A DNA stretch of 34,484 nucleotides from Methanoregula sp. (GCA_028705545.1 JAQWDG010000002.1:4208-38691), one strand, 5' to 3'; positions 9,537 to 26,676 are shown, counted from the stretch's first letter. Notes: generated by a model from the letters alone, not told the origin. Translations and numbers: made by a program.

Positions 9537-12500
9537 TTATGCGAGATAGTGACTGATCGGTTCGAGGGTTATCTTTTCGCGCTTGATGGCATCGATCGCA
9601 AGCGCTGCCGCACGCGCCGCCTGGATCGTGGTGATATAGGGGATGCCGAAATCGACTGCCGCACGCATGATCTGGTAGTGGTCCTGTCGGGACTGGCGGT
9701 CCTGCGGGGTATTGATGATGAGCCGGATCTCCCCGTGGTGCATCATGTCGAGCACGTTTGGCGAACCTTCCTGAACTTTCCGCACCAGGTGCGCTTCGAC
9801 TCCGGCATCGTACAGATAATCCACGGTCCCTTCCGTCCCGTAGAGAGTGAGGCCGAGCTCGCGCAGCTTCCGTGCAATCGGGATCACTTCGTCTTTCTGC
9901 TCGATATTGACCGAGATAAAGATATTCCCCTTGAGCGGAAGTTCGTTGTCGGCCGAGATGCAGGCCTTGTAGAATGCGAGGCCAAAGTCGTAATCGATCC
10001 CCATGACCTCGCCGGTACTCTTCATCTCCGGCCCGAGCATCGTATCGACACCGGCAAGTTTTGCAAAGGGCAGGAGCACCTCTTTTACCGCAACGTGCCT
10101 GATGGTTTTTTCCTTAAAGCCCAGGTCGTGCAGTTTCTTTCCAATCATCACCTTTGCCGCGATCTTTGCAATCGGGAGGCCGGTTGCCTTCGAGACAAAC
10201 GGGACCGTACGGCTCGCCCGGGGGTTGGCCTCGATGATATAGACAATGTTGTCCTTTACGGCCATCTGGATGTTGACGAGACCGACAACGCCGAGGCCGA
10301 GCGCGATCTTTTTCGTATATTCACGGACGGTATCTACGATCTCCTTTGAGAGGGACTGGGTGGGGATAACACAGGCAGAGTCTCCCGAGTGGATGCCGGC
10401 CTGCTCGATGTGCTCCATGATCCCGCCGATGAGCACATCTTTACCGTCGCAGACCGCGTCCACGTCCAGTTCTACGGCGTTCCGGAGGTATGAATCGATC
10501 AGCACCGGGTGGTGCTGGCTGACCCGGACCGCCTCTTTCATGTAAGTCTCAAGTTCAGAGGTGTCGTGCACGATCTCCATTGCACGCCCGCCAAGCACGT
10601 AGGATGGGCGGACAAGGACCGGGTAGCCGATCCTCTCGGCCTTCTCCTTTGCCTCGGCCTCGGAATACGCGGAACTGTTCGCGGGGCTCGGGATGTTGAG
10701 TTTCGTGAGCATCACGCTGAACCGGTCGCGATCCTCGGCGATATCCATCGCATCCGGAGTAGTCCCGAGGATCCTTGTTGGAAGGCCCAGGCGCTTCATC
10801 TCCTTTTCAAGGGGGACGGCAAGGTTGACGGCGTTCTGGCCGCCGAACTGGACCATCACTCCGTAATAGGAGTCGGTCCGGAGGATGTTGGTGACATCTT
10901 CGAGCTGCATGGGCTCAAAGAAAAGCCGGTCGGAGGTGTCGAAATCGGTTGAGACCGTCTCGGGGTTGTTGTTGACGATATGGACTTCCACGCCCTCTTC
11001 CCGCAGCGCCTTTACTGCGTGCACCGTGCAGTAGTCGAACTCGATGCCCTGACCGATCCGGATCGGACCTGAACCGAGGATGAGGATCTTCTTTCGGTCG
11101 TCCTTTACGATCTCGCTTGTCGCATCGTGCGTGGAGTAGAAGTAGGGTGTGACCGCCGGGAATTCCGCAGCGCAGGTATCCACCATCTTGTACACCGGGA
11201 TGCCTGCCAGTTCTTCAATCGCCGTTACCTCTTTCCCGCTGATTGCCGCAATCTCGGCGTTGGTAAACCCATATGTCTTTGCGTACCGGATATCGGCATC
11301 GGTCGCGCCGGCCGCGAGGCGTTTTTCCAGGTCGACGATATTTTTGATCTTTTCGAGGAAAAACGGCACAATCGAGGTGAGCTGCGCGATCTCTTCTACC
11401 GTGAAGCCCTGCCGGAACGCATCGAAGAGGCAGTGGAACCGCTCGTCGGTCGGCCGGGAAAGGATCATCCGGATCTCGCTTGGGCTCGTATGGATCCGGA
11501 CATCGGTATCGATCGAACGCTTGGCCTTGACGAAGGCTTCTTCGAGCGTACGCCCGATCGCCATGACCTCCCCGGTGCTTTTCATCGATGTGGTGAGCGT
11601 CCGGTCGGCGCCCTTGAATTTATCAAACGGCCAGCGGGGGACTTTCACGACCACGTAATCGATGGTCGGTTCAAAGGACGCCGCGGTGCAGCCGGTGACT
11701 GAATTTTTGATCTCGTCGAGGTGAAGTCCTACGGCGATCTTTGCTGCCACCCGTGCAATCGGGTACCCGGTCGCTTTCGATGCAAGCGCAGACGAACGCG
11801 AGACACGGGGGTTGACCTCGATGACCCGGTAGTTTCCGTCTTTGAACGCAAACTGGATGTTGCAGCCGCCCTGCACGTCGAGGGCGCGGATGATGTGGAT
11901 GGCGGCGCTCCTCATCATCTGGAACTCGTCATCGCGGAGCGTCAGGATCGGGGCAACGACCACGCTCTCACCCGTGTGGATACCCATGGGGTCCACGTTC
12001 TCCATGCTGCAGACGATGATGCAGGTATCGGTTGCGTCCCGCATCACTTCGAACTCCAGCTCCTTCCAGCCCATCACGCTCTGTTCGATGAGAACCTGGT
12101 GGATACGGGAGCGGGAGAGGCCGAGTTCAACGATCCGGGTCAGCTCCTCGCGGGTCCGGCCGATACCGCCGCCGGCTCCGCCGAGAGTGTAGGCCGGGCG
12201 GACAACCGCCGGCAGGCCGATCTTTTCAATTGCCTCGTCGATCTGGCTTAAGGTGTTGATGACGATGCTCTTTGGGACCGGCTCGCCGATCTCGTTCATG
12301 AGGTCACGGAATTTCTCCCGGTCCTCTCCCTTGTAGATCGCTTCGAGCGGTGTCCCCAGGATCTCGACGCCTTTGAGCGCACCCATCTCGGCGAGCTCTG
12401 CGGTGAGGTTGAGGCCGGTCTGGCCGCCCATACCGGAGAGGATGCCGTCGGGCTTCTCCTTCTCGATGATCTTTGCGATGATCTCCGCCCGGAGCGGCTC

Positions 12501-12698
12501 GATGTAGATCCTCTCCGCCATCTCCGGATCGGTCATGATCGTTGCAGGGTTGGAATTGACCAGCACTACCTCGATCCCCTCTTCACGGAGCGAGCGGCAC
12601 GCCTGCGATCCCGAGAAGTCGAACTCCGCTGCCTGCCCGATCTGGATCGGCCCCGATCCGATGAGGAGGACTTTTTTGATGTCCGTGCGCTTCGGCAT
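9537..12698 (-). CDS. carB: Carbamoyl-phosphate synthase large subunit
   Basis: MPKRTDIKKVLLIGSGPIQIGQAAEFDFSG, duplicated ATP-grasp halves, EVNPRVSRSSALASKATG, C-terminal MGS domain; 1053 aa. Confidence 0.98.
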   Translation of the reverse strand: MPKRTDIKKVLLIGSGPIQIGQAAEFDFSGSQACRSLREEGIEVVLVNSNPATIMTDPEMAERIYIEPLRAEIIAKIIEKEKPDGILSGMGGQTGLNLTAELAEMGALKGVEILGTPLEAIYKGEDREKFRDLMNEIGEPVPKSIVINTLSQIDEAIEKIGLPAVVRPAYTLGGAGGGIGRTREELTRIVELGLSRSRIHQVLIEQSVMGWKELEFEVMRDATDTCIIVCSMENVDPMGIHTGESVVVAPILTLRDDEFQMMRSAAIHIIRALDVQGGCNIQFAFKDGNYRVIEVNPRVSRSSALASKATGYPIARVAAKIAVGLHLDEIKNSVTGCTAASFEPTIDYVVVKVPRWPFDKFKGADRTLTTSMKSTGEVMAIGRTLEEAFVKAKRSIDTDVRIHTSPSEIRMILSRPTDERFHCLFDAFRQGFTVEEIAQLTSIVPFFLEKIKNIVDLEKRLAAGATDADIRYAKTYGFTNAEIAAISGKEVTAIEELAGIPVYKMVDTCAAEFPAVTPYFYSTHDATSEIVKDDRKKILILGSGPIRIGQGIEFDYCTVHAVKALREEGVEVHIVNNNPETVSTDFDTSDRLFFEPMQLEDVTNILRTDSYYGVMVQFGGQNAVNLAVPLEKEMKRLGLPTRILGTTPDAMDIAEDRDRFSVMLTKLNIPSPANSSAYSEAEAKEKAERIGYPVLVRPSYVLGGRAMEIVHDTSELETYMKEAVRVSQHHPVLIDSYLRNAVELDVDAVCDGKDVLIGGIMEHIEQAGIHSGDSACVIPTQSLSKEIVDTVREYTKKIALGLGVVGLVNIQMAVKDNIVYIIEANPRASRTVPFVSKATGLPIAKIAAKVMIGKKLHDLGFKEKTIRHVAVKEVLLPFAKLAGVDTMLGPEMKSTGEVMGIDYDFGLAFYKACISADNELPLKGNIFISVNIEQKDEVIPIARKLRELGLTLYGTEGTVDYLYDAGVEAHLVRKVQEGSPNVLDMMHHGEIRLIINTPQDRQSRQDHYQIMRAAVDFGIPYITTIQAARAAALAIDAIKREKITLEPISHYLA

Positions 12699-13762
12699 TA
12701 TTCCAGCCTCCGGAAGAGTGCGTCAAAGAAATGCGCTTCCGTATCCCGCGGCCCGCCATGCGCTTCGGGATGGAACTGCACGGTCGTGAGCTTTAAGTCC
12801 TCGTTCTCGAATCCTTCCACGGTGCCGTCGTTGACATTTGTGTAGGTGACCTTACAGCCCTCGGGAAGGGAATTCGCATCGACTGCAAACCCGTGGTTCT
12901 GGGTGGTGATGAAGATCCTCCCGTCCTTGTACTTTACCGGCTGGTTTGCCCCGCGGTGGCCGAACTTGAGCTTGTAGGTGTCGCCGCCAAGGGCAAGGGC
13001 CGAGACCTGGTTACCCATGCAGATCCCAAAGACCGGGAGTTCTCCCAGCAGATCCTTTATGCAGCGGATCGCATCCGGCGCCTGCTTGGGGTCGCCCGGG
13101 CCGTTGCTGACAAAAAGCGCGTCCGGCTTGCAGGCCATGACCTGATCGGCCTTTGCATTGTAGGGGAAGACATACAGGTCGCCGTTCCTCTTTGAGAGGC
13201 TCGTGAGCATGTTCTTCTTTATCCCGAGATCGATGACGGCAATCTTCTTCCCGGTGCCGGGGATGTGGTAGGCTTCCTTACAGGAGACTTCAGGGATGGG
13301 GACGATATCGCAGATGGTCGGGCTCTTTTTGGCGAGCGCCACGGCATATGCGCCATCGTCGCTTCCCACGACAAGCGCTGCCCGCATGGTGCCGTGCACC
13401 CGGGCCTTGATGGTCAGCGCGCGGGTGTCCACGCCGGTCATGCCTAAAAGACGTTGTTCTTCAAAAAAGGTTCTGATGGAAGGGAGGTGTTCGGGTTTTT
13501 CACAGATTTCCTTGGTGATGCACCCAAGGGCACATACCCGTGGATTCTGGAAGTTTTGTGGATCGACACCGTAGTTGCCGATCAGGGGAAACGTAAACAT
13601 CAGGATCTGGCCGAAATAACTGGGATCTGTCAAAGATTCCATGTACCCGGTCATCTGGGTGTTAAAGACCAGTTCTCCTGCGCATTCCCCCTCTGCCCCG
13701 AATCCTTCACCTGTTACAAAGTCCCCGTCCTCGAATCCCAGAACCGCCTTCATGGTGTCCAT
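12698..13762 (-). CDS. carA: Carbamoyl-phosphate synthase small subunit
   Basis: GELVFNT.MTGY.E.LTDPSY, SNGPGDP, catalytic GICMG, FGHRGANQP, QFHPEA. Start 13762 or 13753. Confidence 0.97.
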   Translation of the reverse strand: MDTMKAVLGFEDGDFVTGEGFGAEGECAGELVFNTQMTGYMESLTDPSYFGQILMFTFPLIGNYGVDPQNFQNPRVCALGCITKEICEKPEHLPSIRTFFEEQRLLGMTGVDTRALTIKARVHGTMRAALVVGSDDGAYAVALAKKSPTICDIVPIPEVSCKEAYHIPGTGKKIAVIDLGIKKNMLTSLSKRNGDLYVFPYNAKADQVMACKPDALFVSNGPGDPKQAPDAIRCIKDLLGELPVFGICMGNQVSALALGGDTYKLKFGHRGANQPVKYKDGRIFITTQNHGFAVDANSLPEGCKVTYTNVNDGTVEGFENEDLKLTTVQFHPEAHGGPRDTEAHFFDALFRRLE

Positions 13763-13971: not shown

Positions 13972-14250
13972 ATGCCAACCCATGTGAACGGGAAAGACAA
14001 AGGACAGGTTATGTTGTATGCGCTCTCGACCTGCCAGTGGTGCCATAAGACGAAGGTGCTGCTCGAATCGCTTGGTATTGCGTTCGATTATGAATATGTC
14101 GATCTGCTCGAAGGAAAAGAGCAGGACGATGCCATGGCAAGGATTGAGCGTTGGAACCCGGCCGGATCGTTTCCCACGATCATTATCGGCGACGACCGAG
14201 CCATTATCGGTTTCCACGAGGACGAGATACGGGAGGCGTTTGGTGCATGA
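13972..14250 (+). CDS. Glutaredoxin-like protein (methanoredoxin-like)
   Basis: LYALSTCQWCHKTK active-site CxxC and SFPTIII cis-Pro motif. ATG 13972 is preferred over the ORF-track start at 13825. Confidence 0.9.
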   Translation: MPTHVNGKDKGQVMLYALSTCQWCHKTKVLLESLGIAFDYEYVDLLEGKEQDDAMARIERWNPAGSFPTIIIGDDRAIIGFHEDEIREAFGA

Positions 14251-14759
14251 TGCCGGGTATCACTGAGGCGGAGATTGATGCGGCGTATTCGGCCTACAAG
14301 ACCGATGCGGAGAAGAACGGCTACCGGCTGAACCCGGATGTGGAGTTTGTCAAAAACCTTATCCGCGGCCTCTTAAAGAACGGGCAGCGCTACGGATACC
14401 GGGCCTGCCCCTGCCGGCTTGCATCAGGAATTAAGGACCAGGACCTCGACATTGTCTGCCCCTGCGATTACCGGGACAGCGATATCGAGGAGCACGGCGC
14501 CTGTTACTGCGCCCTGTACGTGAACGAGGCCATTGCCTCGGGAAAGCAGAAGGTCGCACCCATTCCCGAACGCCGGCCGCCCCGGTCCGAACGTATGAAA
14601 GCCGGTTCGATCAAGGTCGCGTCAGCGACCGAGCGCCCGGTCTTTCCCCTCCCGGTCTGGCGCTGCAAGGTCTGCGGGTATCTCTGCGCACGCGAGCAGC
14701 CGCCGGGGATTTGTCCGATTTGTAAGGCGACGAAGGAGCGGTTTGAGAGGTTTGTGTAA
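14247..14759 (+). CDS. Ferredoxin:thioredoxin reductase catalytic domain fused to C-terminal rubredoxin (ferredoxin:disulfide reductase)
   Basis: FTR motifs CPC...CPC...CYC, then WRCKVCGY...CPICK rubredoxin-like domain; ATGA overlap with the glutaredoxin stop. Confidence 0.9.
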   Translation: MMPGITEAEIDAAYSAYKTDAEKNGYRLNPDVEFVKNLIRGLLKNGQRYGYRACPCRLASGIKDQDLDIVCPCDYRDSDIEEHGACYCALYVNEAIASGKQKVAPIPERRPPRSERMKAGSIKVASATERPVFPLPVWRCKVCGYLCAREQPPGICPICKATKERFERFV

Positions 14760-16851: not shown

Positions 16852-17178
16852 GGTCACCGTGACCAGTAAAAAAAACGGTCACCCCCTACCCCTTACTTTG
16901 CACGCAACAAAAAAACTGGTCGGGTCGACCGATCTCAGTGATCGGTCAGGGTGACCACACTTCTTCCAGTACCGCGACCTGCGTTTCCCCTGGAACTTCA
17001 GACGAGAAGGGGTGGTCACCCTGACCGTACTCGATCAGAGGTCGGGGTGACCGATCTTTGACATTGGTCGGGTCGACCATGGATCCATGCGGATTTTCGG
17101 TCACCCCCTACCCCCAACTTTGCATGCAACAAAAAAATAGGTCGGGTCGACCGATCTCAGTGATCGGTCAGGGTGACC
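16852..17178. repeat. Array of eight 13-bp palindromes GGTCR-NNN-YGACC
   Basis: Copies start at 16852, 16918, 16944, 17014, 17040, 17066, 17140 and 17166; degenerate half-sites at 16877, 17099 and 17235. Confidence 0.9.
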
Positions 17179-17242
17179 TCTTTTATTCCAGTTTCCCGAC
17201 CGGTGTTTCCCCTGGAATTTCAGATCAGGTTGGTGGTCGCCC
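16876..17242. repeat. Imperfect direct repeat of about 145 bp, copies offset by 222 bp (16876-~17021 and 17098-~17242)
   Basis: Both copies read CGGTCACCCCCTACCCC..ACTTTGCA.GCAACAAAAAAA..GGTCGGGTCGACCGATCTCAGTGATCGGTCAGGGTGACC...TTCCAGT...GTTTCCCCTGGAA.TTCAGA...GGTGGTC.CCC. Confidence 0.9.
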
Positions 17243-17382
17243 CCTTCCCATGTCCCGCACAAAAGGGGTAGGGGAGGGGCCGGACGCGGGACAGGGGGAT
17301 ACCCCCGGTCCCCTCTTTTCCCACCCGGGTGTCCTGCCCCCATCCAAATACTAAAAATACCGTTTCCACCAACCTGTTATGC

Positions 17383-17721
17383 ATGAGTGATCCCGTCACG
17401 GTCGAGATTGTCGGCCTGAAATACTCGTCCTGCTCGCCGTTCCCCTGCGATGCAGACCGCACCTGCGGCCTCTCCGAATGCCACCCGTCAGGAAGACTCA
17501 CGAAAGCCTTCGATGCCCTCAGTGCGGTATTAAAAGAGACCTACGGCGACAAAGTAGATGTCAGGCTCACGCTCATCGACGACAACGTGCCGGACCACAT
17601 CCGCGCAATCCTCGAAAAGGACTATCCCCCTATCCCCATGGTCCTCGTGAACGGCAGGCTCACCCGGATCGGCAGGATCGCCCTCGACCGAATCAAAAAC
17701 GAGATCGAACAGTGCCGGTAA
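17383..17721 (+). CDS. Small thioredoxin-fold-like protein with a Cys-rich N-terminal loop
   Basis: VTVEIVG then CSPFPCDADRTCGLSEC, a helix, V.V.L, and the cis-Pro-like PIPMVLVNG motif; ATG 17383. Confidence 0.7.
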   Translation: MSDPVTVEIVGLKYSSCSPFPCDADRTCGLSECHPSGRLTKAFDALSAVLKETYGDKVDVRLTLIDDNVPDHIRAILEKDYPPIPMVLVNGRLTRIGRIALDRIKNEIEQCR

Positions 17722-17737: not shown

Positions 17738-18319
17738 TTAGCAGATCCGGCTCAGGACCCCGGTACCGAGATCGTAATAAAGCCCGTGAACCCCGATCTT
17801 CCCCTCCGCCACGGCATTTTTTAAGAGCGGGTAGGTGTGCAGGTGCTCGATCTGGAGCCGAACGTTCTCCTGCTCGATAAGCCGGTAGCGTTCTTCCTGT
17901 TCCTGCACGGTAGTTGGGGGAGAGATATTCTTGTCCACCCGGGTCTTTGCATCGCGGGCATTGTTGAGCCAGAGCGGAATATAAGCGTCTGTACTCTCGT
18001 GATCCAGCGCCCGGATCGCCCCGCAGTTCGAATGTCCGCAGATCACCACGTCGCTCACGTGGAGATGGGAGACCGCATATTCGAGCACCGTTGCAAAGTT
18101 CCAGTCATGGATTGGCACAATGTTCCCGATATTGCGCTGGATAAAAAGTTCCCCGGCTTTTGCCTGGGTAATATGACCGGTCTGTAACCGCGAATCCGAA
18201 CACCCGATCCAGAGCACGGTCGGGTGCTGCGCGTTTACCAGTTCGCGGTAGTGGTCGATATTCGGCGTAAAATCGGATTCGCGGAACTTGTAGTTTCCCA
18301 AAAGAAGGTTGTCGATCAT
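17738..18319 (-). CDS. can: Beta-class carbonic anhydrase
   Basis: Zn ligands in WIGCSDSR and CGHSNCGAI, GELFIQRNIGN, VLEYAV..L, HGLYYDL.TG; ATG 18319. Confidence 0.93.
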   Translation of the reverse strand: MIDNLLLGNYKFRESDFTPNIDHYRELVNAQHPTVLWIGCSDSRLQTGHITQAKAGELFIQRNIGNIVPIHDWNFATVLEYAVSHLHVSDVVICGHSNCGAIRALDHESTDAYIPLWLNNARDAKTRVDKNISPPTTVQEQEERYRLIEQENVRLQIEHLHTYPLLKNAVAEGKIGVHGLYYDLGTGVLSRIC

Positions 18320-18650: not shown

Positions 18651-19380
18651 ATGGAGGACTCATAAAATCCGCCCGGGCCAGGATGCCCCCGGCCGGACCG
18701 GGCAAGGTTTCATCATCTACCAGCAGGAGCAGTATAGTACGCCAGCAACGACCTGTGAACACTATTCGTCCGTACCGGGTGAAGACACCACCCTTCTTAC
18801 CCTTTATGCCCTGGCCGGGGAAGAGAGCGGGGGCTTTGTCACCTTCCGGCCCCGTCTCTTCTCGAAGATCCAGCGGCATTTCTTTACGCCGGTCCGCGCC
18901 GCTGCACTTCCCGTTGCCGGCCCGGTTACGGTACGGGAACTCTCGTCGCACGAGCTTGTCCGTGCCGAGGACGAGCTCTGGATCCACTACCACCAGCAGA
19001 AGGCCGATGCCGCAACCGACCGGCTCTTTGCCGCCTTTGCCGGGACACAACTTGTAGGTGTAGCCCGCTGCTCGCGCCACCCGGACGGCCTTGAGGTGGA
19101 CGGGGTGTACGTGCTCGACGAGTACCGTCTCAAGGGTTTTGCCCGCTCGATCATGAAGCAGCTGATCGAAGAGTGCGGCAGGAACGAGACGTTGTACATG
19201 CATTCAAAGGTCGAGCTGCAGGAGTTCTACGGGAGTATGGGATTTTATGCAATCCCGGAACCCGCACTGCCAAAGACCATCCGGGACCGGTTCGGGTTTG
19301 TTATGGGGAACCTCCAGGGAATCGATGTCTGCCCGATGAAACGCGACCCGTCCGCGGCGGATGCGGAAAAGAACAACTGA
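18651..19380 (+). pseudogene. GNAT-family N-acetyltransferase with disrupted start (one extra base shortly after ATG 18651), or assembly indel
   Basis: Frame 18652-19380 is open and reads ...RLFAAFAGTQLVGVARCSRHPDGLEVDGVYVLDEYRLKGFARSIMKQLIE...FYGSMGF (GNAT motifs), but has no ATG/GTG/TTG before 19096. ATG 18651 is out of frame and stops after 4 codons. Confidence 0.65.
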
Positions 19381-19501: not shown

Positions 19502-21451
19502 ATGATCGAACTGCTCTTTTTCCTCATCCTCGCGTTATTCACCCTCGGGACGGTAGTCCCCCTTGCCGGGGCCAAAGGTGACCGCCGCAGCATCCGGGTC
19601 TTCTCCCTTGCCTGTACCGGGGCAGCATCCGCGCTCCTTGCCGCCTTTGCCCTCCTTGTCATTATCCCGGGAACAACGTTTGCCCTTCCGCTCTGGCAGC
19701 CGTTCCCCGGCATCTCCCTTGATCTCTATGTGGACCGGCTGGGGGCCTTCTTCCTCCTCCTGATAGGCACGGTCGCCGCATGCACGGCGGTCTATTCATC
19801 AGGATACACCGAACACATGGAGGGCGGGAACCGGAGGAACATCCTCTGCGGAGGCACGGCCCTCTTCGTGCTGGCCATGACCCTTGTGGTCGCCTCCCAC
19901 AACACGTTCTCGTTCCTGTTCTTCTGGGAGCTGATGGCCGCGGTCTCCTTTATCCTTGTGATGTACGAGTACAGGGACCCCGGAACCACAAAAGCCGGGA
20001 TCTACTATTTCGTGATGACCCAGCTCTCGACCCTCTTTGTAATGCTCGGGGTAATCGCGCTCTTCGTGCTCACGGGGTCGTTTGCCATGGCCCCTCTTGC
20101 CATCACCCCCGCCTCTGCACCGCTTGCAACGGCCGCATTTTTGGCCCTCTTTTTTGGCTTTGCCATCAAGGCCGGGATCATCCCCTTCCACAAGTGGCTC
20201 TTCTTTGCCCACCCGGCAAGCCCGTCGCCGGTCTCTGCGCTCATGTCCGGGGTCATGCTCAAGGTTGCGGTGTACGGGCTCCTCCGGTTCATCCTCGATG
20301 TATTCTCTCCCGATCTCTGGTGGGGCGTGCTCATCCTCGTCTTTGGGATCGCCTCCGCGGTTCTGGGCGTGATCTATGCCTTCAAAGACCACGACATCAA
20401 GGGGCTCCTTGCCTATTCGAGCATCGAGAATGTGGGGATCATCTTTACCGGCATCGGCCTCTTTGTGATCTTCTCCTGCGAAGGGCTTACTCTCCTTGCC
20501 ACCATCAGCCTGCTTGCCGCGCTCTTCCATTCCCTCAACCACGCGCTCTTCAAGAGCCTGCTCTTTCTTACGGCAGGTTCCGTGGTGCACGCAACCGGCA
20601 CCCGGGACATCGAGAAGATGGGCGGCCTTGCAAAGAACATGCCGTATACCTCGGTGCTCTTCTTTACCGGGGCCATCGCCATTGCCGCCCTCCCTCCGTT
20701 GAACGGGTTTGCAAGCGAACTGCTGCTCTATATCGCGTTCTTCCATTCGGTCACGGTCGTCGACCCGCTCTTAAAAGTGCTCCTCTTCATCTGCCTTGCC
20801 CTCTTTGCCCTGACAAGCGCCCTCTCGGCGGCCTGCTTTGTCAAGGCGTTCTCATCGGTCTTTCTCGCCCAGCCGCGCTCGGATGCGGCAACGGGCGCAC
20901 ACGAGGTATCCCGATCCATGCTTGCCGGCCCGGCAGTCCTTGCCGCTGCCTGCGTTCTCCTCGGGGTCTTTGCCTGCCAGATCTTTATCGCTGCCGGTTA
21001 TGTCATCCCCTTCCCGGACCTGCTCCTCGTGAGCATCCTGCTCCTGTTCATGGCAGGGCTCACGTACCTTGTCCTGTATTTCACCGCATCACGTGAAGCG
21101 AGAATAAGCGAGACCTGGGGCTGCGGGACGAAATCGCAGTCGGCGATCACGGAATATACCGGCCACGGCTTCTCCGAGCCGATTGTCACCATCTTTGCCT
21201 CGGTGTACCGCACGAAAAAGTCCAGTACAAAGACGTACTCCGACAAGTACAACTGCCTCTTTGGCGGCGGAACGGCGGAGATACGGCTCGTGGCGTTCTT
21301 CGAGGAATATATCTACCGCCCCATAGGTACGGCGGCAATGAAAGGTGCCACCATTGTCGCACGGATGCAGAACGGCTGCCTTGACACCTACCTGCTCTAT
21401 GTCTTTATCGCGGTAATCGGGGTCATCGTCTTTTTGGGGGTAATGGCATGA
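19502..21451 (+). CDS. hyfB: Hyf/Ehr complex antiporter-like membrane subunit (HyfB/EhrA; NuoL/MrpA-D family)
   Basis: Multi-TM; FWELM, KAGIIPFHKWL..AHP, MLKVAVYG, LAYSSIEN, NHALFKSLLF, PPLNGFASE, WGCG; ATG 19502. Confidence 0.9.
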   Translation: MIELLFFLILALFTLGTVVPLAGAKGDRRSIRVFSLACTGAASALLAAFALLVIIPGTTFALPLWQPFPGISLDLYVDRLGAFFLLLIGTVAACTAVYSSGYTEHMEGGNRRNILCGGTALFVLAMTLVVASHNTFSFLFFWELMAAVSFILVMYEYRDPGTTKAGIYYFVMTQLSTLFVMLGVIALFVLTGSFAMAPLAITPASAPLATAAFLALFFGFAIKAGIIPFHKWLFFAHPASPSPVSALMSGVMLKVAVYGLLRFILDVFSPDLWWGVLILVFGIASAVLGVIYAFKDHDIKGLLAYSSIENVGIIFTGIGLFVIFSCEGLTLLATISLLAALFHSLNHALFKSLLFLTAGSVVHATGTRDIEKMGGLAKNMPYTSVLFFTGAIAIAALPPLNGFASELLLYIAFFHSVTVVDPLLKVLLFICLALFALTSALSAACFVKAFSSVFLAQPRSDAATGAHEVSRSMLAGPAVLAAACVLLGVFACQIFIAAGYVIPFPDLLLVSILLLFMAGLTYLVLYFTASREARISETWGCGTKSQSAITEYTGHGFSEPIVTIFASVYRTKKSSTKTYSDKYNCLFGGGTAEIRLVAFFEEYIYRPIGTAAMKGATIVARMQNGCLDTYLLYVFIAVIGVIVFLGVMA

Positions 21452-22389
21452 GCGCCGACTTTGTCCTCTACTGCATCCTCAACACGGCGGTCGTCGTCCT
21501 CATCTCCCCGCTCTTTGTGAGCCTCGTAAAGAAAGTCAAGGCGTGGACGCAGGGGCGGCAGGGCCCGTCGGTCTTCCAGACGTATTACACGCTCGCAAAG
21601 CTCCTCAGAAAAGAGACGATCTATTCGCCCCATGCCTCGTGGGTCTCCCGGGTCGCACCGGTTGCCTGTATGGCGGCGATCCTTACCGCCTCCCTCTTTG
21701 TCCCGCTTGTCTGGGTCACGGAACCGTACGGCGGGATAGGAAACATCATCCTGTTCCTGTACCTGCTCGTGGTGGCCCGGTTCTTCATGGCGCTCCTCGG
21801 CCTCGATGCAGGGAGCGCATTTGGGGGTATGGGCAGTTCCCGGGAGATGAGCGTATCGGCGGTTATCGAGCCCACTACCATCGTGGTCTTTGCCGCGCTC
21901 GCCTTTGTTTTTAAGACCCTCAACATCTTCGACATGATGGCAGCCGCGGTCTCTGCAGGGACTCTCAAGACCCCGATCCTGATCCTCCTTGCCATTTCGC
22001 TTTTCATTATCCTGATCGTCGAGACTTCAAGGATCCCGGTCGACAACCCGGAGACCCATCTCGAACTGACCATGATCCACGAGGGCATGATCCTCGAACA
22101 GTCCGGGAAGAATCTCGCCCTCATGGAGCTCTCTGCGGCCATAAAACAGACGCTCCTCATGGCGCTTCTCATCAACCTGATCGTGCCCTGGGGCATTGCA
22201 ACAACGCTCTCCGCTGCCGCCATCCTCGCGGCACTTGTCATCTTCCTTGTCAAAGGCTGCGTACTCTCCCTTGTCATCGGGACTTTCGAGTCTTCGATGG
22301 CAAAGATGCGGTTCTTCCGCCTCCCGGGTCTTTTCATGATGGCGTTCTTCTTCTCGACCTTAATTGTCATTATCGAGGTGTTCGCATGA
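21448..22389 (+). CDS. hyfC: Hyf/Ehr complex NuoH-like membrane subunit (HyfC/EhrB)
   Basis: KVKA..QGRQGP, GLDAGSAFGGMGSSRE, ETSRIPVDNPETHLELTMIHEGMILE.SG; ATGA overlap. Confidence 0.92.
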   Translation: MSADFVLYCILNTAVVVLISPLFVSLVKKVKAWTQGRQGPSVFQTYYTLAKLLRKETIYSPHASWVSRVAPVACMAAILTASLFVPLVWVTEPYGGIGNIILFLYLLVVARFFMALLGLDAGSAFGGMGSSREMSVSAVIEPTTIVVFAALAFVFKTLNIFDMMAAAVSAGTLKTPILILLAISLFIILIVETSRIPVDNPETHLELTMIHEGMILEQSGKNLALMELSAAIKQTLLMALLINLIVPWGIATTLSAAAILAALVIFLVKGCVLSLVIGTFESSMAKMRFFRLPGLFMMAFFFSTLIVIIEVFA

Positions 22390-23078
22390 CCGATCCCGCG
22401 TTCTTCGACGGTGTCATCAAGATCCTCTTTGTCTGCGTGCTCATCACGGCCGCGTACATCATCACGACAAAGAACCTCATCTCACTTGTACGGGTCTACT
22501 CGCTCCAGTCGCTGGTGCTCGTTGCTATCGCCACAGCCCTCTTCTGGCGCGAAGGCGCGGCAGTCCTTGCCGGGATTGCGGTTGTGACCCTGGTCACCAA
22601 GGTGATCGTTATCCCGTATTTCATCGCGGCAGTGCAGGAGAAGATCCGGATTAAGCGGGATATCGAGTTCCACTACCTGAGTCCGACCAGTTCGCTGTTC
22701 ATCTCAATCGCGCTCATGCTCGTCATCTACATCGCGCTCTCGAACGTCCTTGCAGGCACGCCGGCGAAAGGCAGCCTCTTTTTCTTCGGCGCGGTGATCG
22801 GGCTCTCCCTTGTCCTCATGGGCATGATGGTCACCTTCTCCCGGAAAAAGGCCATCACAAAAGTGCTCGGTTACCTCTCGATGGAAAACGGGGTGCTCCT
22901 CTTTGGTCTCTTTGCAACCGAGCTGCCGTTCATCATAGAATTCCTGATCGTGATCGACCTGATCATCCTCGTGATCCTGACCACCATCCTCACGATTGGG
23001 ATCGACTCAACCCTTGAGGAATACCATAACCGGCTCCACCGGTTCTATCTCTGGGAAGAGCAGGAGGAGGCGCCATGA
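22386..23078 (+). CDS. hyfE: Hyf/Ehr complex membrane subunit (HyfE/EhrC)
   Basis: Y.LQS, TK...IP, GYLSMENG and E....D motifs; about 7 TM; ATGA overlap. Confidence 0.88.
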   Translation: MTDPAFFDGVIKILFVCVLITAAYIITTKNLISLVRVYSLQSLVLVAIATALFWREGAAVLAGIAVVTLVTKVIVIPYFIAAVQEKIRIKRDIEFHYLSPTSSLFISIALMLVIYIALSNVLAGTPAKGSLFFFGAVIGLSLVLMGMMVTFSRKKAITKVLGYLSMENGVLLFGLFATELPFIIEFLIVIDLIILVILTTILTIGIDSTLEEYHNRLHRFYLWEEQEEAP

Positions 23079-24559
23079 TCCTGCTCGCCTATGTGCTCTG
23101 CGCTGCCATTGTAATCGCCTGCATCGCCTTCTGCCACACCCACCGGCAGATGAATGCGGCAGCCCTCGGGTTTGGCGCTGCCTGCGCGGCGATTACGGGA
23201 TACATCCTCATCTTCGTACAGGTGCCGGTCGGGACCCTTATTGTCGGGAACGGCTACTTCTTTATCGACCACTTCGGCCTCTTCGAGGTCGCCGTGGCAA
23301 CGGCCATTTTCCTTCTCGCCGCCGTATATGCCCGGGGGTACGTGGAGAACCTGATCATAAGCCACGAACTGGAAACGGGAAGCCTCAAACTCTTCTACGG
23401 GGCCTGGTGCCTGCTCGAACTGGTTATCGTCCTTGCCTTCTATTCGGACAACCTTGCGCTCTTCTGGATCTTTGCCGAGATGACCACGATCATCTCCGCG
23501 ATGCTTGTCGCTATCCTCTCGGCAAAGGAGAACATCGATGCTGCGCTCAAGTACATCTTCGTTGCCTCGGTCTCGATGCTCATTGCCTTTGCCGGGCTCA
23601 TCTTCCTCTTCGAGATTGCACGCTCGACCACAGGTACGGGCTCCCTCAACTGGACGGTGCTGATCCAGCAGGCACCCGCGTTCCCGCCGGGCATGGCGAT
23701 CGCCGCATTTGCCCTGATCTTTGTCGGGTTTGCCGCAAAATCGGGTATCTTCCCGTTCCACACCTGGCTTCCCGAGGCCCATGCAAAAGCCCCGTCCGCG
23801 GTGAGCGCCGTCCTCTCCGGAGTCCTCCTGAATGTAGGTATCTACGGGATCATCCGGGTCTTTGCCATCGTCCACCGGACCACGGCTGTGGCAACTGCAT
23901 CCCTGCTCGTCCTCTTCTTTGGGGTCTGCACCATCGGGATCGCGGCGATCTCGATGCTCCCCGAGAAGAACCTCAAAAAAATGATCGCGTTCTCGAGCAT
24001 CGAGAATATGGGCATCTGCCTTGTCGGCCTTGCAGTCGCAACCCCGCTCGCACTTTTCTGGGTACTCTTCCACGTGATGGCCCACGCGTTCACGAAAGCC
24101 TCGCTCTTTTTCTCGGCCGGTATCCTGCACCGGCAGTACAGGAGCCACCTCTCGGCAGATGCACCCGACGAGATCCGGGACGTGTTCCGGTTCCAGCCGC
24201 TGGCTGCGTGGGGGATCATCATCGGGGGTCTTGCCATTATCGGCATGCCGCCGTTTGCGGTCTTCTTCTCAAAATTCTTTATCCTGCTCTCGCTCGGGTC
24301 GCTCTCCCTCTGGGTGCTCGTTCTTGTCCTTGCACTTCTCTTTGTAGCGGCCGCAGCTCTCGGGTACTTCGTGATCCGGTCGTTCTCCCGGGTTACTCCC
24401 GAAGGCGAGCCGCTGGACCTTGTGCCCTACCAGACGCCGCTCGCCATGAAAGCCCCGATCGTGATCCTGCTCGCGGCAGTCCTCCTGCTGGCATTCCTTT
24501 TCCCGATGGGAGGCACCGCCTACTTTGACCGGATCGTTGCGGAGCTGATGTTTATATGA
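23075..24559 (+). CDS. hyfF: Hyf/Ehr complex antiporter-like membrane subunit (HyfF/EhrD)
   Basis: WIFAEMTT, AALKY, KSGIFPFHTWLPEAHAKAP..VSAVLSG, FSSIENMG, HAFTKASLF, PPFAVFFSKF. Confidence 0.9.
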   Translation: MILLAYVLCAAIVIACIAFCHTHRQMNAAALGFGAACAAITGYILIFVQVPVGTLIVGNGYFFIDHFGLFEVAVATAIFLLAAVYARGYVENLIISHELETGSLKLFYGAWCLLELVIVLAFYSDNLALFWIFAEMTTIISAMLVAILSAKENIDAALKYIFVASVSMLIAFAGLIFLFEIARSTTGTGSLNWTVLIQQAPAFPPGMAIAAFALIFVGFAAKSGIFPFHTWLPEAHAKAPSAVSAVLSGVLLNVGIYGIIRVFAIVHRTTAVATASLLVLFFGVCTIGIAAISMLPEKNLKKMIAFSSIENMGICLVGLAVATPLALFWVLFHVMAHAFTKASLFFSAGILHRQYRSHLSADAPDEIRDVFRFQPLAAWGIIIGGLAIIGMPPFAVFFSKFFILLSLGSLSLWVLVLVLALLFVAAAALGYFVIRSFSRVTPEGEPLDLVPYQTPLAMKAPIVILLAAVLLLAFLFPMGGTAYFDRIVAELMFI

Positions 24560-26148
24560 CCGGAACTCTTCCCCACCGTGAAGATGCAGCGTCGAAGGCC
24601 ATCCGTGAAGTCCTTGGAGGGGATGCCCCTGCCCGGGCCACGCGGGGGCCCGGTGGCGAATGGTATGTACCGGTGGATAAAAGCAGCTTTGAACGGGCGA
24701 TCCCTGAGATTGCAGCGCGCAAGTTCGTCCTCATCAGTCTCTTCTGTGTTGAAGGGTTCTCACCGGAGAGCAGGCATTCCCTCCTGTACGTTCTCGAAAG
24801 GAAAGGAAGCATCCTTGTCCTTGTCCGGGCGGTTGCCGGCGGTCAGGCAACCTCGGTTGCCACAATTTTTCCTTCGGCTGCATGGCCGGAGCGCGAGTGC
24901 CGGGACGGTTTCGGGATCGGATTTACCGGCACATCCGATACCCGCAGGCTCCTCCTTCACGAGCCATACCCAAAGGATTTCCACCCGCTTGATAAGGCGT
25001 TCACAAACGCACCGATCGTGACCAATGACGATGTCCCTGCTGCGGACGAATACCCGTTTAAGGCAATGACCGGGGAGGGCGTGTACCAGGTCGCTGTAGG
25101 CCCGGTCCACGCCGGCATCATCGAGCCTGGGCACTTCCGGTTCAGCGTAATTGGTGAGACCGTCTTCAACCTCGAAATACGGATGTTCTACACCCATCGG
25201 GGGATCGAGAAACTCGCCGAGGGAAAGTCCACGGAGGACTGCGTGAAGGTTGCCGAAGCCGTGAGCGGCGACGAATCGGTGGCAAACGTAACCTCGTTCT
25301 GCATGGCTGTCGAGCGCCTCTCGGGGATTACCGTCCCGGACCGGGCCTGGTACCTCCGGACTATCCTCTGCGAGCTGGAACGATGCTGCTCGCACCTCGG
25401 CGACGAGGCAGGGATGCTCACCGATGTTGCCTTTGCCCTGGGTTCAAGCCAGTTCTCGGTGCTCCGCGAGGAAGTTTTCCGGAAGAACGCGGAACTGACC
25501 GGTTCCCGGTTCCTCCGGGGAATGACCTGTATCGGCGGCGTCTCCCGGGACATCCCGAGAGACCGGCTCGCAGACCTTGCAGAATTTGTCGGGCAACTCA
25601 GGAAACGATTCCGGGTTGGACTCTCGATCGTCCTGTCCACGCCATCGGTGATCGACCGGTTCTCGACCACCGGGGTAGTAAAGCGCGAACTCCTCCGGCC
25701 GCTCAACATCACCGGCCCGGTGGCCCGGGCATCGGGCGGCAGGGTCGATGTCCGGCTCGACCACCCGTACGGCGTGTACGACCGGTTCGTCCCGGTTCAT
25801 ACCCCCATTGCCGATGGAGACGTGCTCGCCCGGTTCACGGTAAAGGCACAGGAATTTCTCGACTCGCTTGACCTCATCGAACGGCTCATTGCTGCAATTC
25901 CGGAAGGGCCGGTACAAAGCAACGAGCCGGTCCGGGATGGGTATGCGCTTGCCCTTGTCGAATCGGCCCGGGGCCAGAACCTCTGCTGGGTCAGGGTCAA
26001 AGACGGAAGGATCGACCGATACAAGGTCCGAACCGCCTCGTACTGCAACTGGCTGGCCATCGAACATGCGGTACCGGGGAACATCGTCGCCGACTTCCCG
26101 GTGATCAACAAGAGCATGAACCTGTCCTATGCCGGGACGGATATGTGA
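24556..26148 (+). CDS. hyfG: Ehr large subunit (HyfG/HycE-like NuoC+NuoD fusion) lacking NiFe-binding CxxC motifs
   Basis: NuoC-like W.ERE..D.FGI.F; VGPVHAGIIEPGHFRF, Y.HRGIEKL, VES.RG. The L1 site reads VSGDES and the C-terminus reads DFPVINKSMNLSYAGTDM, which is Ehr-type. Confidence 0.9.
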   Translation: MTGTLPHREDAASKAIREVLGGDAPARATRGPGGEWYVPVDKSSFERAIPEIAARKFVLISLFCVEGFSPESRHSLLYVLERKGSILVLVRAVAGGQATSVATIFPSAAWPERECRDGFGIGFTGTSDTRRLLLHEPYPKDFHPLDKAFTNAPIVTNDDVPAADEYPFKAMTGEGVYQVAVGPVHAGIIEPGHFRFSVIGETVFNLEIRMFYTHRGIEKLAEGKSTEDCVKVAEAVSGDESVANVTSFCMAVERLSGITVPDRAWYLRTILCELERCCSHLGDEAGMLTDVAFALGSSQFSVLREEVFRKNAELTGSRFLRGMTCIGGVSRDIPRDRLADLAEFVGQLRKRFRVGLSIVLSTPSVIDRFSTTGVVKRELLRPLNITGPVARASGGRVDVRLDHPYGVYDRFVPVHTPIADGDVLARFTVKAQEFLDSLDLIERLIAAIPEGPVQSNEPVRDGYALALVESARGQNLCWVRVKDGRIDRYKVRTASYCNWLAIEHAVPGNIVADFPVINKSMNLSYAGTDM

Positions 26149-26157
26149 GGAAAGAGT

Positions 26158-26676
26158 ATGGTCAATGCATTTTCCTGTCTGGTAAAAAGGAAGGTGACCG
26201 ACGAGCACCCGGCAAAGAACGAAGAGATCGAGAAACTGGGTGCTGAGATCAAACGGGAGATCGATGCCCGGTTCGGCCGCAGCCTTGCGATCCGCGAACT
26301 CGATGCCGGCAGCGACAACGCGGCCGAGATCGAGATAAACAACCTCTCGAATGCTTACTACGATGTCGAACGCTTTGGCATTGCGTTCGTTGCGTCCCCC
26401 CGGCATGCGGATGTCCTGCTCGTGACCGGGGCAGTCACCCACAACATGGAAATTGCGGTGAAAAAAACCTACGATGCCATGCCCTTCCCGAAGTTTGTAG
26501 TGGCGGCGGGTGACGATGCCTGCGATGGCGGGATCTATAAAGGGACCTATGCAGTCCTCGGGGGCGTGGACAAGGTACTGCCGGTCGATCTGATAATCCC
26601 GGGCAATCCTCCCACACCGGCACAGATCCTTGCCGGTCTGCTTGCGCTCATGAAGAATGCGGGCAAAACCCGGTAA
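26158..26676 (+). CDS. hyfI: Ehr small subunit (HyfI/NuoB family) with all four canonical [4Fe-4S] Cys replaced
   Basis: GRSLAIRELDAGSDNAAEIE, YD.ERFG..FVASPRHADVLLVTG, VVAAGDDACDGG, VD..IPGNPPTP; the NuoB scaffold is otherwise intact. Confidence 0.9.
   Translation: MVNAFSCLVKRKVTDEHPAKNEEIEKLGAEIKREIDARFGRSLAIRELDAGSDNAAEIEINNLSNAYYDVERFGIAFVASPRHADVLLVTGAVTHNMEIAVKKTYDAMPFPKFVVAAGDDACDGGIYKGTYAVLGGVDKVLPVDLIIPGNPPTPAQILAGLLALMKNAGKTR

Follow-up and report, generated by a model that had tools for sequence, protein, structure and literature searches.

Ehr complexes have a group-4-like large subunit without both NiFe CxxC motifs and are encoded by a set of six genes (ehrABCDLS) for two antiporter-like, one NuoH-like, one HyfE-like, one large and one small subunit. 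The usual small subunit carries four Cys for an N2-type [4Fe-4S] cluster, as described for HyqI, and this may be part of the definition of the family. Statements on published work refer here to excerpts of the papers cited. The operon was described as Pmh in M. hungatei, M. acetivorans and M. mazei, where the large-subunit cysteines were noted as missing (PMC2686161, 2009), and Mhun_1817-1822 of M. hungatei was listed, as ehrABCDLS, among hydrogenases (PMC4704411, 2016). Other reports describe Ehr as NiFe-less and of unknown function (PMC6349859, PMC7304191, PMC10284858), and Ehr proteins were detected in Geobacter (PMC8691401). The locus analysed here is an Ehr operon at positions 19502-26676 of a 34,484-nt stretch of DNA (the window) from a Methanoregula-like methanogen (Methanoregula sp., GCA_028705545.1 JAQWDG010000002.1:4208-38691). 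The complex it encodes is free of every canonical NiFe and [4Fe-4S] Cys ligand.

The operon comprises six uninterrupted open reading frames (ORFs) of hyfBCEFGI type on the + strand (Table 1), where four ATGA overlaps link B-C-E-F-G and 9 nt separate G from I. Family matches are PF00361 (twice), PF00146, a HyfE-like match (NF008556) below cut-off, PF00346 with PF00329, and PF01058, which together give the same gene set as ehrABCDLS. The nearest named relatives belong to Methanoregula, with 84-89% identity in the small subunit, and proteins of the same cluster are on record for M. mazei, M. horonobensis and others. The predicted fold of HyfI is that of NuoB/MbhJ/HycG (pLDDT 84) and that of HyfG is HycE/NuoCD (pLDDT 81; TM-score 0.81 to HycE); for HyfE the sequence search gave no solved relative. 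The invariant motifs of HyfG are GPVHAGIIEPGHFR, GDE and NLSYxGxD.

Ligand loss affects both soluble subunits, and CxxC is absent from all six proteins. Aligned to E. coli HycE (7z0s_E), HyfG presents S237, E240, S524 and G527 at the NiFe Cys positions; the RxCGxC and DPCxxC ligands of a group 4 [NiFe] hydrogenase or Hyf are missing, as is the HyfH/HycF/EchF ferredoxin subunit with its 2x[4Fe-4S]. Aligned to HycG (7z0s_G) and to rhizobial HyqI, HyfI presents D53, A56, D120 and N150 at the [4Fe-4S] positions and retains just two Cys, C7 and C122. The N2 cluster ligands, NuoI and electron-input module of complex I (Nuo/Fpo) were likewise not found. No CxxCxxCxxxC ferredoxin or hydrogenase Cys motif was identified in or beside the operon by a six-frame scan, the two matches lying at 30.6 and 31.4 kb, and a Pfam search, which covered 30 of the window's 129 ORFs, gave neither a maturation protease nor an electron-input module. 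These results agree with an earlier note on this DNA, which had described six intact genes, the first five joined by ATGA overlaps, an Ehr-type complex without NiFe CxxC or canonical Fe-S cysteines, and the lack of a ferredoxin subunit, electron-input module and maturation protease nearby. Since D53, A56, D120 and N150 replace the four Cys, the complex is an Ehr variant rather than a typical member, and the operon is a variant within a known family. The earlier note had also considered a Cys-bearing small subunit encoded elsewhere: the 78%-complete genome contains no other Ehr-type small subunit, its other PF01058 genes being EchC (in an ech operon) and FrhG; another small subunit might still be recruited.

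The replacements are fixed in a broad set of relatives. The set analysed comprises 89 loci from methanogens, Altiarchaeota, DPANN and Chloroflexota: nine further loci and the best 80 of 134 GTDB matches, these from Methanoregula, Methanosarcina, Methanoculleus, Methanofollis, Altiarchaeota, Aenigmatarchaeota, Nanoarchaeota and Dehalococcoidia. The order B-C-E-F-G-I is kept in most loci with enough flank. D53 is present in 89/89, D120 in 87/89 (E in the other two) and N150 in 88/89 (D in one); position 56 holds T, A, P, V or E, and Cys in 0/89. Each change from Cys to Asp or Asn takes two base changes, and both synonymous codons are in use (GAC in 68 and GAT in 21 for D53; AAC in 44 and AAT in 44 for N150). 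Because identical substitutions are fixed in 89/89 loci, the ligand loss is not due to chance or decay. In five assemblies (L011, L017, L018, L023 and L024) the operon is broken into many short frames, probably by sequencing errors, and an Altiarchaeales locus (L053, 14290-19313) contains a second tandem B-C-E-F copy right after a complete operon.

All six genes are under purifying selection. The dN/dS ratios (Nei-Gojobori median pairwise values, pairs with dS 0.1-1.5 only) are 0.11-0.20 across the six genes in 22-23 sequences of the Methanoregula group, where the small subunit has the lowest value (0.114), and 0.07-0.15 in 22 sequences of the Methanosarcina group; neighbouring control genes give 0.06-0.24. 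Relaxed selection, a possibility contemplated in the earlier note, is thus not seen in any of the genes. A decaying hydrogenase relic, as argued for Geobacter Ehr and stated in PMC13194489, would account for the patchy distribution of the operon, which is accessory and present in 42 of 151 genomes of class Methanomicrobia and in 26 of the 33 other genomes of the genus. The dN/dS values largely refute decay, and the same replacement residues across phyla and the complete six-gene order add to the case against it, so that this explanation is very unlikely. The GC content of the operon is 0.59 against 0.56 for the genome, with GC at third codon positions of 0.69-0.80 against 0.71-0.74 for purD and argF; this comparison gives no sign of a recent foreign origin. 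A promoter and terminator scan of the operon region yielded nothing informative, and four sequencing runs gave short scattered contigs only, with one identical piece of 270 nt at depth 2 in an RNA run.

Cluster loss is not confined to this group. CCCC occupies the ligand positions in 93 of the 150 best representatives (50% identity level). In 20 rows that are complete there is one Cys or none, and the patterns include SEGD, NEGD, DVDD and DEDS. In a first tree with the ligand columns retained, which biases it, the cluster label needs 7 changes, at least 4 of them forced. A second, quick tree of 120 rows was made from a short alignment with the ligand columns removed (8 columns) and without 10 rows that were odd or had probably suffered frameshifts, and it omitted the bulk of the near-identical DxDN rows; here 12 changes are needed and at least 5 are forced by well-supported branches. 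A second Cys-less lineage, retrieved with query P0130, comprises 69 loci with the order I-B-C-E-F-G. It has Ser, Thr, Asp or Asn, then Gly or Asp, then Asp at the ligand positions, often zero Cys in the small subunit, and the same large-subunit motifs as Methanoregula HyfG. This lineage probably belongs to the candidate phyla radiation (CPR), as an atlas search with one neighbouring gene led to CPR taxa. In four Chloroflexota loci the N2 ligands are gone and the ferredoxin motif is kept. The small subunits of these loci (L192-L194 and L199) have one or two ferredoxin motifs, and their large subunits end in ELCY(A/S)C(L/M/C)DR, a C-terminal CxxC regained or retained. The single odd sub-lineage supposed in the earlier note therefore gives way to a loss that recurs across the family, even where a fused ferredoxin is kept. 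Given that other lineages of the small subunit show the loss again, electron transfer can probably be dispensed with, and the common Ehr function likely needs no electron delivery to the G/I interface.

A redox function would demand a metal centre on D53, D120, N150 and C122, of Fe-S or another type, or a centre supplied by a partner such as EchC/EchF or FdhAB, possibly in a formate-dehydrogenase-linked complex. The operon is located among fdhAB and fdhC in five loci (L081, L082, L084, L087 and L208) and in Methanospirillum, where hyfBCEFGI is annotated as formate-dehydrogenase-linked (PMC11346949), and a complex of formate dehydrogenase and Ehr has been proposed (PMC6349859). Deletion of hyq in Azorhizobium slowed diazotrophic growth by about 20% and altered H2 evolution (PMC2650096, PMC3357923). 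These data do not transfer to the Cys-less form because HyqI keeps four Cys; the cultures described in the same papers were sparged with 5% CO2, a supply that would mask any phenotype in carbon uptake. C122 is kept in 88/89 loci, but it was rejected as a compensating ligand since 36 of 93 cluster-bearing forms also have Cys there. A single Cys is insufficient to anchor a cubane; moreover, other lineages place Ser, Gly, Thr or Glu at the ligand sites, many small subunits are Cys-free, and most loci have no electron-input gene nearby. A complex that is still redox-active is accordingly judged unlikely. Fused ferredoxin-NuoB forms exist which by eye resemble the first 22 residues of HyfI; a profile test with 10 fused proteins gave nothing significant for these residues as the stub of a deleted ferredoxin.

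The membrane part retains the charged axis of complex I in the antiporter-like and NuoH-like subunits. In HyfB, E143, K223, H347, K351 and E406 are each present in 70/70 sequences and K254 in 63/70, with H230 and H343 as further motif residues. HyfF has E135, K222 and K341 in 73/73, H337 in 72/73 and K400 in 71/73, and H229 as a further motif residue. These sets uphold the charged antiporter motifs reported in the earlier note. The acidic residues E141, E192, D199, E206, E212 and E227 of HyfC are invariant (70/70) and also present in HyqC; HyfE keeps K72, E167 and D191 in 77/77 and E185 in 74/77. From the lost ligands, the intact channels and the purifying selection, the complex probably works without electron transfer. 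The proposal that ion translocation has been uncoupled from electron transfer thus stands as far as these three observations go, and its other elements, ion transport itself and the absence of metal, are inferred.

A secondary ion exchanger without redox function could serve pH homeostasis by moving H+ against Na+/K+ or against formate, acetate or a similar anion; its G/I cap would be a structural lid or a pH or ligand sensor, and carbonic anhydrase (CA) would be a co-located member of an acid-base toolkit. The channel residues kept in both antiporter-like subunits are consistent with it, as are MbhH and MrpA among the best solved relatives of HyfB. Genes of pH and ion balance also neighbour other loci: PF00999 with DedA/VTT, F1Fo, FdhC, SatP-family and CitMHS/DASS-type genes. 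Lineages without CA are accounted for as well. However, the known Mrp Na+ path is missing, because neither MrpE (PF01899) nor MrpF (PF04066) has a match in the 78%-complete genome or the operon and the operon has no MrpB/G-type gene; the Mrp-like transporter suggested in the earlier note does not hold in that form. Around the old active site of G, many polar residues are invariant, more than a lid should need. An ion exchanger is a candidate, if a rather doubtful one.

The preferred reading, put forward tentatively, is that the complex is a proton-gradient-coupled, non-redox CO2/bicarbonate or pH machine. A coupling to CO2/bicarbonate is possible because CA genes of unrelated types often flank such operons. 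B and F would conduct protons along the conserved Glu/Lys/His axis, and E together with the NuoH-like C would relay charge or conformational change between this axis and the C/G/I interface. The E-channel of complex I relays in a comparable manner. The former NiFe/N2 cavity of G/I, which would be lined by invariant His, Glu and Asp (H185, E190, H193, D239, E240 and D529 of G; with D53, D120 and N150 on the side of I), might host a protonation reaction, that is, CO2 hydration or bicarbonate dehydration, directly or via a docked CA. The Asp and Asn residues might take the place of the cluster in its anion nest, or they might bind a simple cation. The machine could consume proton motive force (pmf) like DAB or generate it from a CO2/HCO3- disequilibrium, and its physiological job would be the balance of cytoplasmic pH and inorganic carbon, e.g. 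during formate-fed methanogenesis. The gradient-driven non-redox enzyme envisaged in the earlier note thereby gains a concrete candidate reaction, for which the evidence comes from the gene neighbourhood. An enzyme or sensor driven by the gradient could also act on a substrate other than CO2, e.g. in decarboxylation, hydrolysis or a pmf-sensing signal. The invariant G motifs common to all Ehr/Hyq forms, cluster-bearing or not, and the GNAT gene that recurs as a neighbour in Methanomicrobiales are in keeping with this, but across lineages only CA, ATP synthase and ion transporters recur as neighbours, and such an enzyme is improbable.

The CA neighbours belong to several families. In the window, a beta-CA is located 1.2 kb upstream of the operon. 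At least 16 of the 42 operon-bearing Methanomicrobia genomes, a lower bound from a comparison of operon and CA lists by hand, have a CA no more than about 9 kb from the small subunit, in 3 genera and three arrangements, and the operon-adjacent CAs of this class form three separate CA lineages. In one Methanosarcinaceae locus (L040) the operon is bracketed by CamH-like and Cam gamma-CAs (1624-2178 and 12347-13141), one of them above the NF040597 cut-off. In the second Cys-less lineage, the Zn triad of beta-CA was identified in 11 of 80 ORFs within 600 bp of the operon and in 0 of 189 farther ORFs (Fisher p 1e-6, with a post hoc pattern and loci that are kin; 6 of 32 identity clusters). These CA-like ORFs form at least three mutually non-alignable groups, including CsoSCA_cat (CsoSCA2-like), Pro_CA_2 and unassigned ones, and one locus also has a gamma-CA-like gene. 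CsoSCA2 is described as widespread and unstudied in PMC9164163, in which a term search found no mention of hydrogenase neighbours. Proteins with a C-x-D...H-x-x-C triad and no Pfam CA match adjoin the operon in L138 (3044-3892), L141 (2-631), L146 (17857-18375), L156 (8971-9972) and L160 (9168-9794), and are candidates for new beta-CA families. Of the 69 loci of the second lineage, 22 have ATP synthase genes no farther than 3 kb away (18 of the 44 with at least 1 kb upstream), a position taken in 4 loci by a Na+/H+ exchanger (PF00999) and a DedA/VTT gene. Neighbours at other loci include a channel of the SatP family and an anion transporter of the CitMHS/DASS type, the latter upstream of the operon in L053 and also L058. 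In genera g12 and g28 the operon is found among fdhAB, fdhC and CA.

Several observations weigh against a CO2/bicarbonate function. No CA adjoins the operon in 8/8 Chloroflexota DxDN, 8/8 Altiarchaeota-phylum and 6/6 plasmid Hyq-type regions, and no PF00484 gene was identified in 5/5 operon-holding genomes tested, for which completeness is not given. CA is near-universal in the class (141/151) whereas the operon is patchy. The window CA is situated at an ancestral carA-FTR-thioredoxin-like-CA locus (FTR, ferredoxin:thioredoxin reductase) that occurs in operon-free genomes too, and three operon-free genomes of the genus have the CA adjoining the alpha/beta hydrolase found downstream of the window operon. 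Given this ancestral home, the operon seems to have been inserted at a CA locus that was already there, or to have been deleted from it, and the adjacency in the window may be an accident of insertion. Of the operon-bearing genomes of the genus that were retrieved, those whose CA is away from the operon have it with GNAT (6/6), with fdhC/fdh adjoining in 5. The CA motif pattern was written after the matches had been seen, and the loci do not count as independent cases. A CO2 pump would be short-circuited by a CA that is free in the cytosol, and neither G nor I has a recognisable CA-type Zn site. The signal that links CA to the operon is real and recurs, but it is not obligatory and is weakest in this window.

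Table 1. Positions of the operon genes, the former cluster ligands and the upstream neighbours in the window.
Feature	Position	Strand	Basis
HyfB/EhrA, antiporter-like subunit (NuoL/MrpA-type), 649 aa	19502..21451	+	NF006418 above cut-off; PF00361
HyfC/EhrB, NuoH-like, 313 aa	21448..22389	+	family match
HyfE/EhrC membrane subunit, 230 aa	22386..23078	+	NF008556 match below cut-off
HyfF/EhrD, antiporter-like subunit, 494 aa	23075..24559	+	NF006427 above cut-off; PF00361
HyfG/EhrL large subunit (NuoC+D fold), 530 aa, without C-terminal extension	24556..26148	+	PF00346+PF00329
HyfI/EhrS, small subunit with NuoB fold and no [4Fe-4S] cysteines, 172 aa	26158..26676	+	PF01058
D53-N-A-A56, former CxxC of N2-type cluster in HyfI	26314..26325	+	alignment
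D120 (former third ligand) and C122 (non-ligand Cys) in HyfI	26515..26523	+	alignment
N150, former fourth ligand in HyfI (GCPP to GNPP)	26605..26607	+	alignment
beta-carbonic anhydrase (PF00484, CSDSR...HSNC), divergent from operon, candidate partner	17738..18319	-	Pfam
GNAT acetyltransferase frame, directly upstream	18655..19380	+	Pfam/neighbourhood
Ferredoxin:thioredoxin reductase catalytic subunit fused to rubredoxin-like domain, 4.7 kb upstream	14151-14759		Pfam

The beta-CA, GNAT and FTR/rubredoxin genes upstream of the operon had gone unmentioned in the earlier note. The GNAT frame has no ATG near its 5' end and its first canonical start is at 19096, relatives being about 217 aa from ATG. 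Methanoregula and Methanoculleus-type loci have GNAT next to the operon, and other loci have it next to CA alone; as a companion of either, depending on the genome, GNAT may regulate the operon or the CA. A small Cys-rich thioredoxin-like protein without Pfam match (17329-17721) adjoins the beta-CA across Methanomicrobiales families and is a possible redox partner of the CA. The region 16860-17260 is non-coding and AT/GC-patchy; by eye, a segment of some 90 bp is directly repeated there (near 16890-16970 and near 17110-17190), and the words GGTCACC/GGTGACC recur. The downstream AIR-synthase-like gene was rejected as HypE, scoring far under the HypE cut-off.

It has long been asked in what way redox chemistry powers the remote proton pumps of complex I. 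Since a relative has kept the channel axis and shed every cofactor several times independently, the architecture can apparently be driven by non-redox means. The annotation of Cys-less operons as H2-evolving or ferredoxin-reducing hydrogenases is probably wrong. For the family as a whole, Ehr may be a non-oxidoreductase chemiosmotic machine in which a cofactor-free NuoB/NuoCD cap, alone or with a docked CA, couples CO2/bicarbonate interconversion to proton translocation, a generalization that is possible though on balance doubtful. If true, Ehr would balance pH and carbon in methanogens, the operon located after the ATP synthase genes of respiration-less CPR bacteria could be their missing source or sink of pmf, and Ehr would be a natural complex I that pumps without any electron transfer. 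The function is directly testable because Methanosarcina, which is in culture and open to genetics, has copies. A changing transcript has been reported for MA4368 (PMC11619418). MA4368 is presumably the operon's B gene.

The operon and its large-subunit defect are already published, and the small subunit's ligand loss did not turn up in the searched literature. The search, with subscription reviews and some supplements outside it, gave nothing on Cys-less Ehr small subunits or on CA next to Ehr. The Ehr/Pmh operons of methanogens have the same six genes, the same composition and a large subunit likewise without NiFe cysteines. In the excerpts of PMC2686161 and PMC4704411 they are called a putative hydrogenase, or possibly not one, and neither small-subunit ligand loss nor a function test is mentioned. 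The Hyq operons of Azorhizobium and rhizobia (hyqBCEFGI; PMC2650096, PMC3357923) have the gene order and subunits found here; a Rhizobium plasmid copy is 37% (G) and 54% (I) identical to the Methanoregula proteins and has the same GPVHAGIIEPGHF and NxSYxGxDL motifs. Hyq differs in the N2-type cluster carried by the HyqI cysteines, in an upstream regulator and in its quinone-containing aerobe hosts. For B, C, G and I, the nearest solved structures in both fold and sequence are the E. coli Hyc/Hyf formate hydrogenlyase (7z0s), Mbh (6cfw) and Ech. Compared with these group 4 [NiFe] hydrogenases, the Methanoregula complex is without the NiFe and cluster ligands, the HycF/HyfH ferredoxin, the electron-input subunits and the maturation tail.

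A precedent for the preferred CO2/bicarbonate reading is the DAB (DabA/DabB) vectorial CA, described in the excerpts consulted as a PF00361 machine that performs non-redox CO2 hydration. No DabA-family gene was identified among the six genes or the scanned neighbours, the neighbouring CA being an ordinary PF00484 protein. DabA is a beta-CA-like Zn protein, whereas the Methanoregula cap has the NuoB/NuoCD fold and no recognisable CA site, and the membrane part has two antiporter-like subunits plus NuoH- and HyfE-like subunits. MpsAB and the CupA/B forms of NDH-1 carry out comparable PF00361-coupled non-redox CO2 hydration. The Mrp Na+/H+ antiporter (6z16, 7qru) likewise has two antiporter-like proton subunits and no redox cofactors; it contains a MrpE/F/G/B Na+ module, in place of which the Methanoregula complex has a NuoH-like subunit and a soluble cap.

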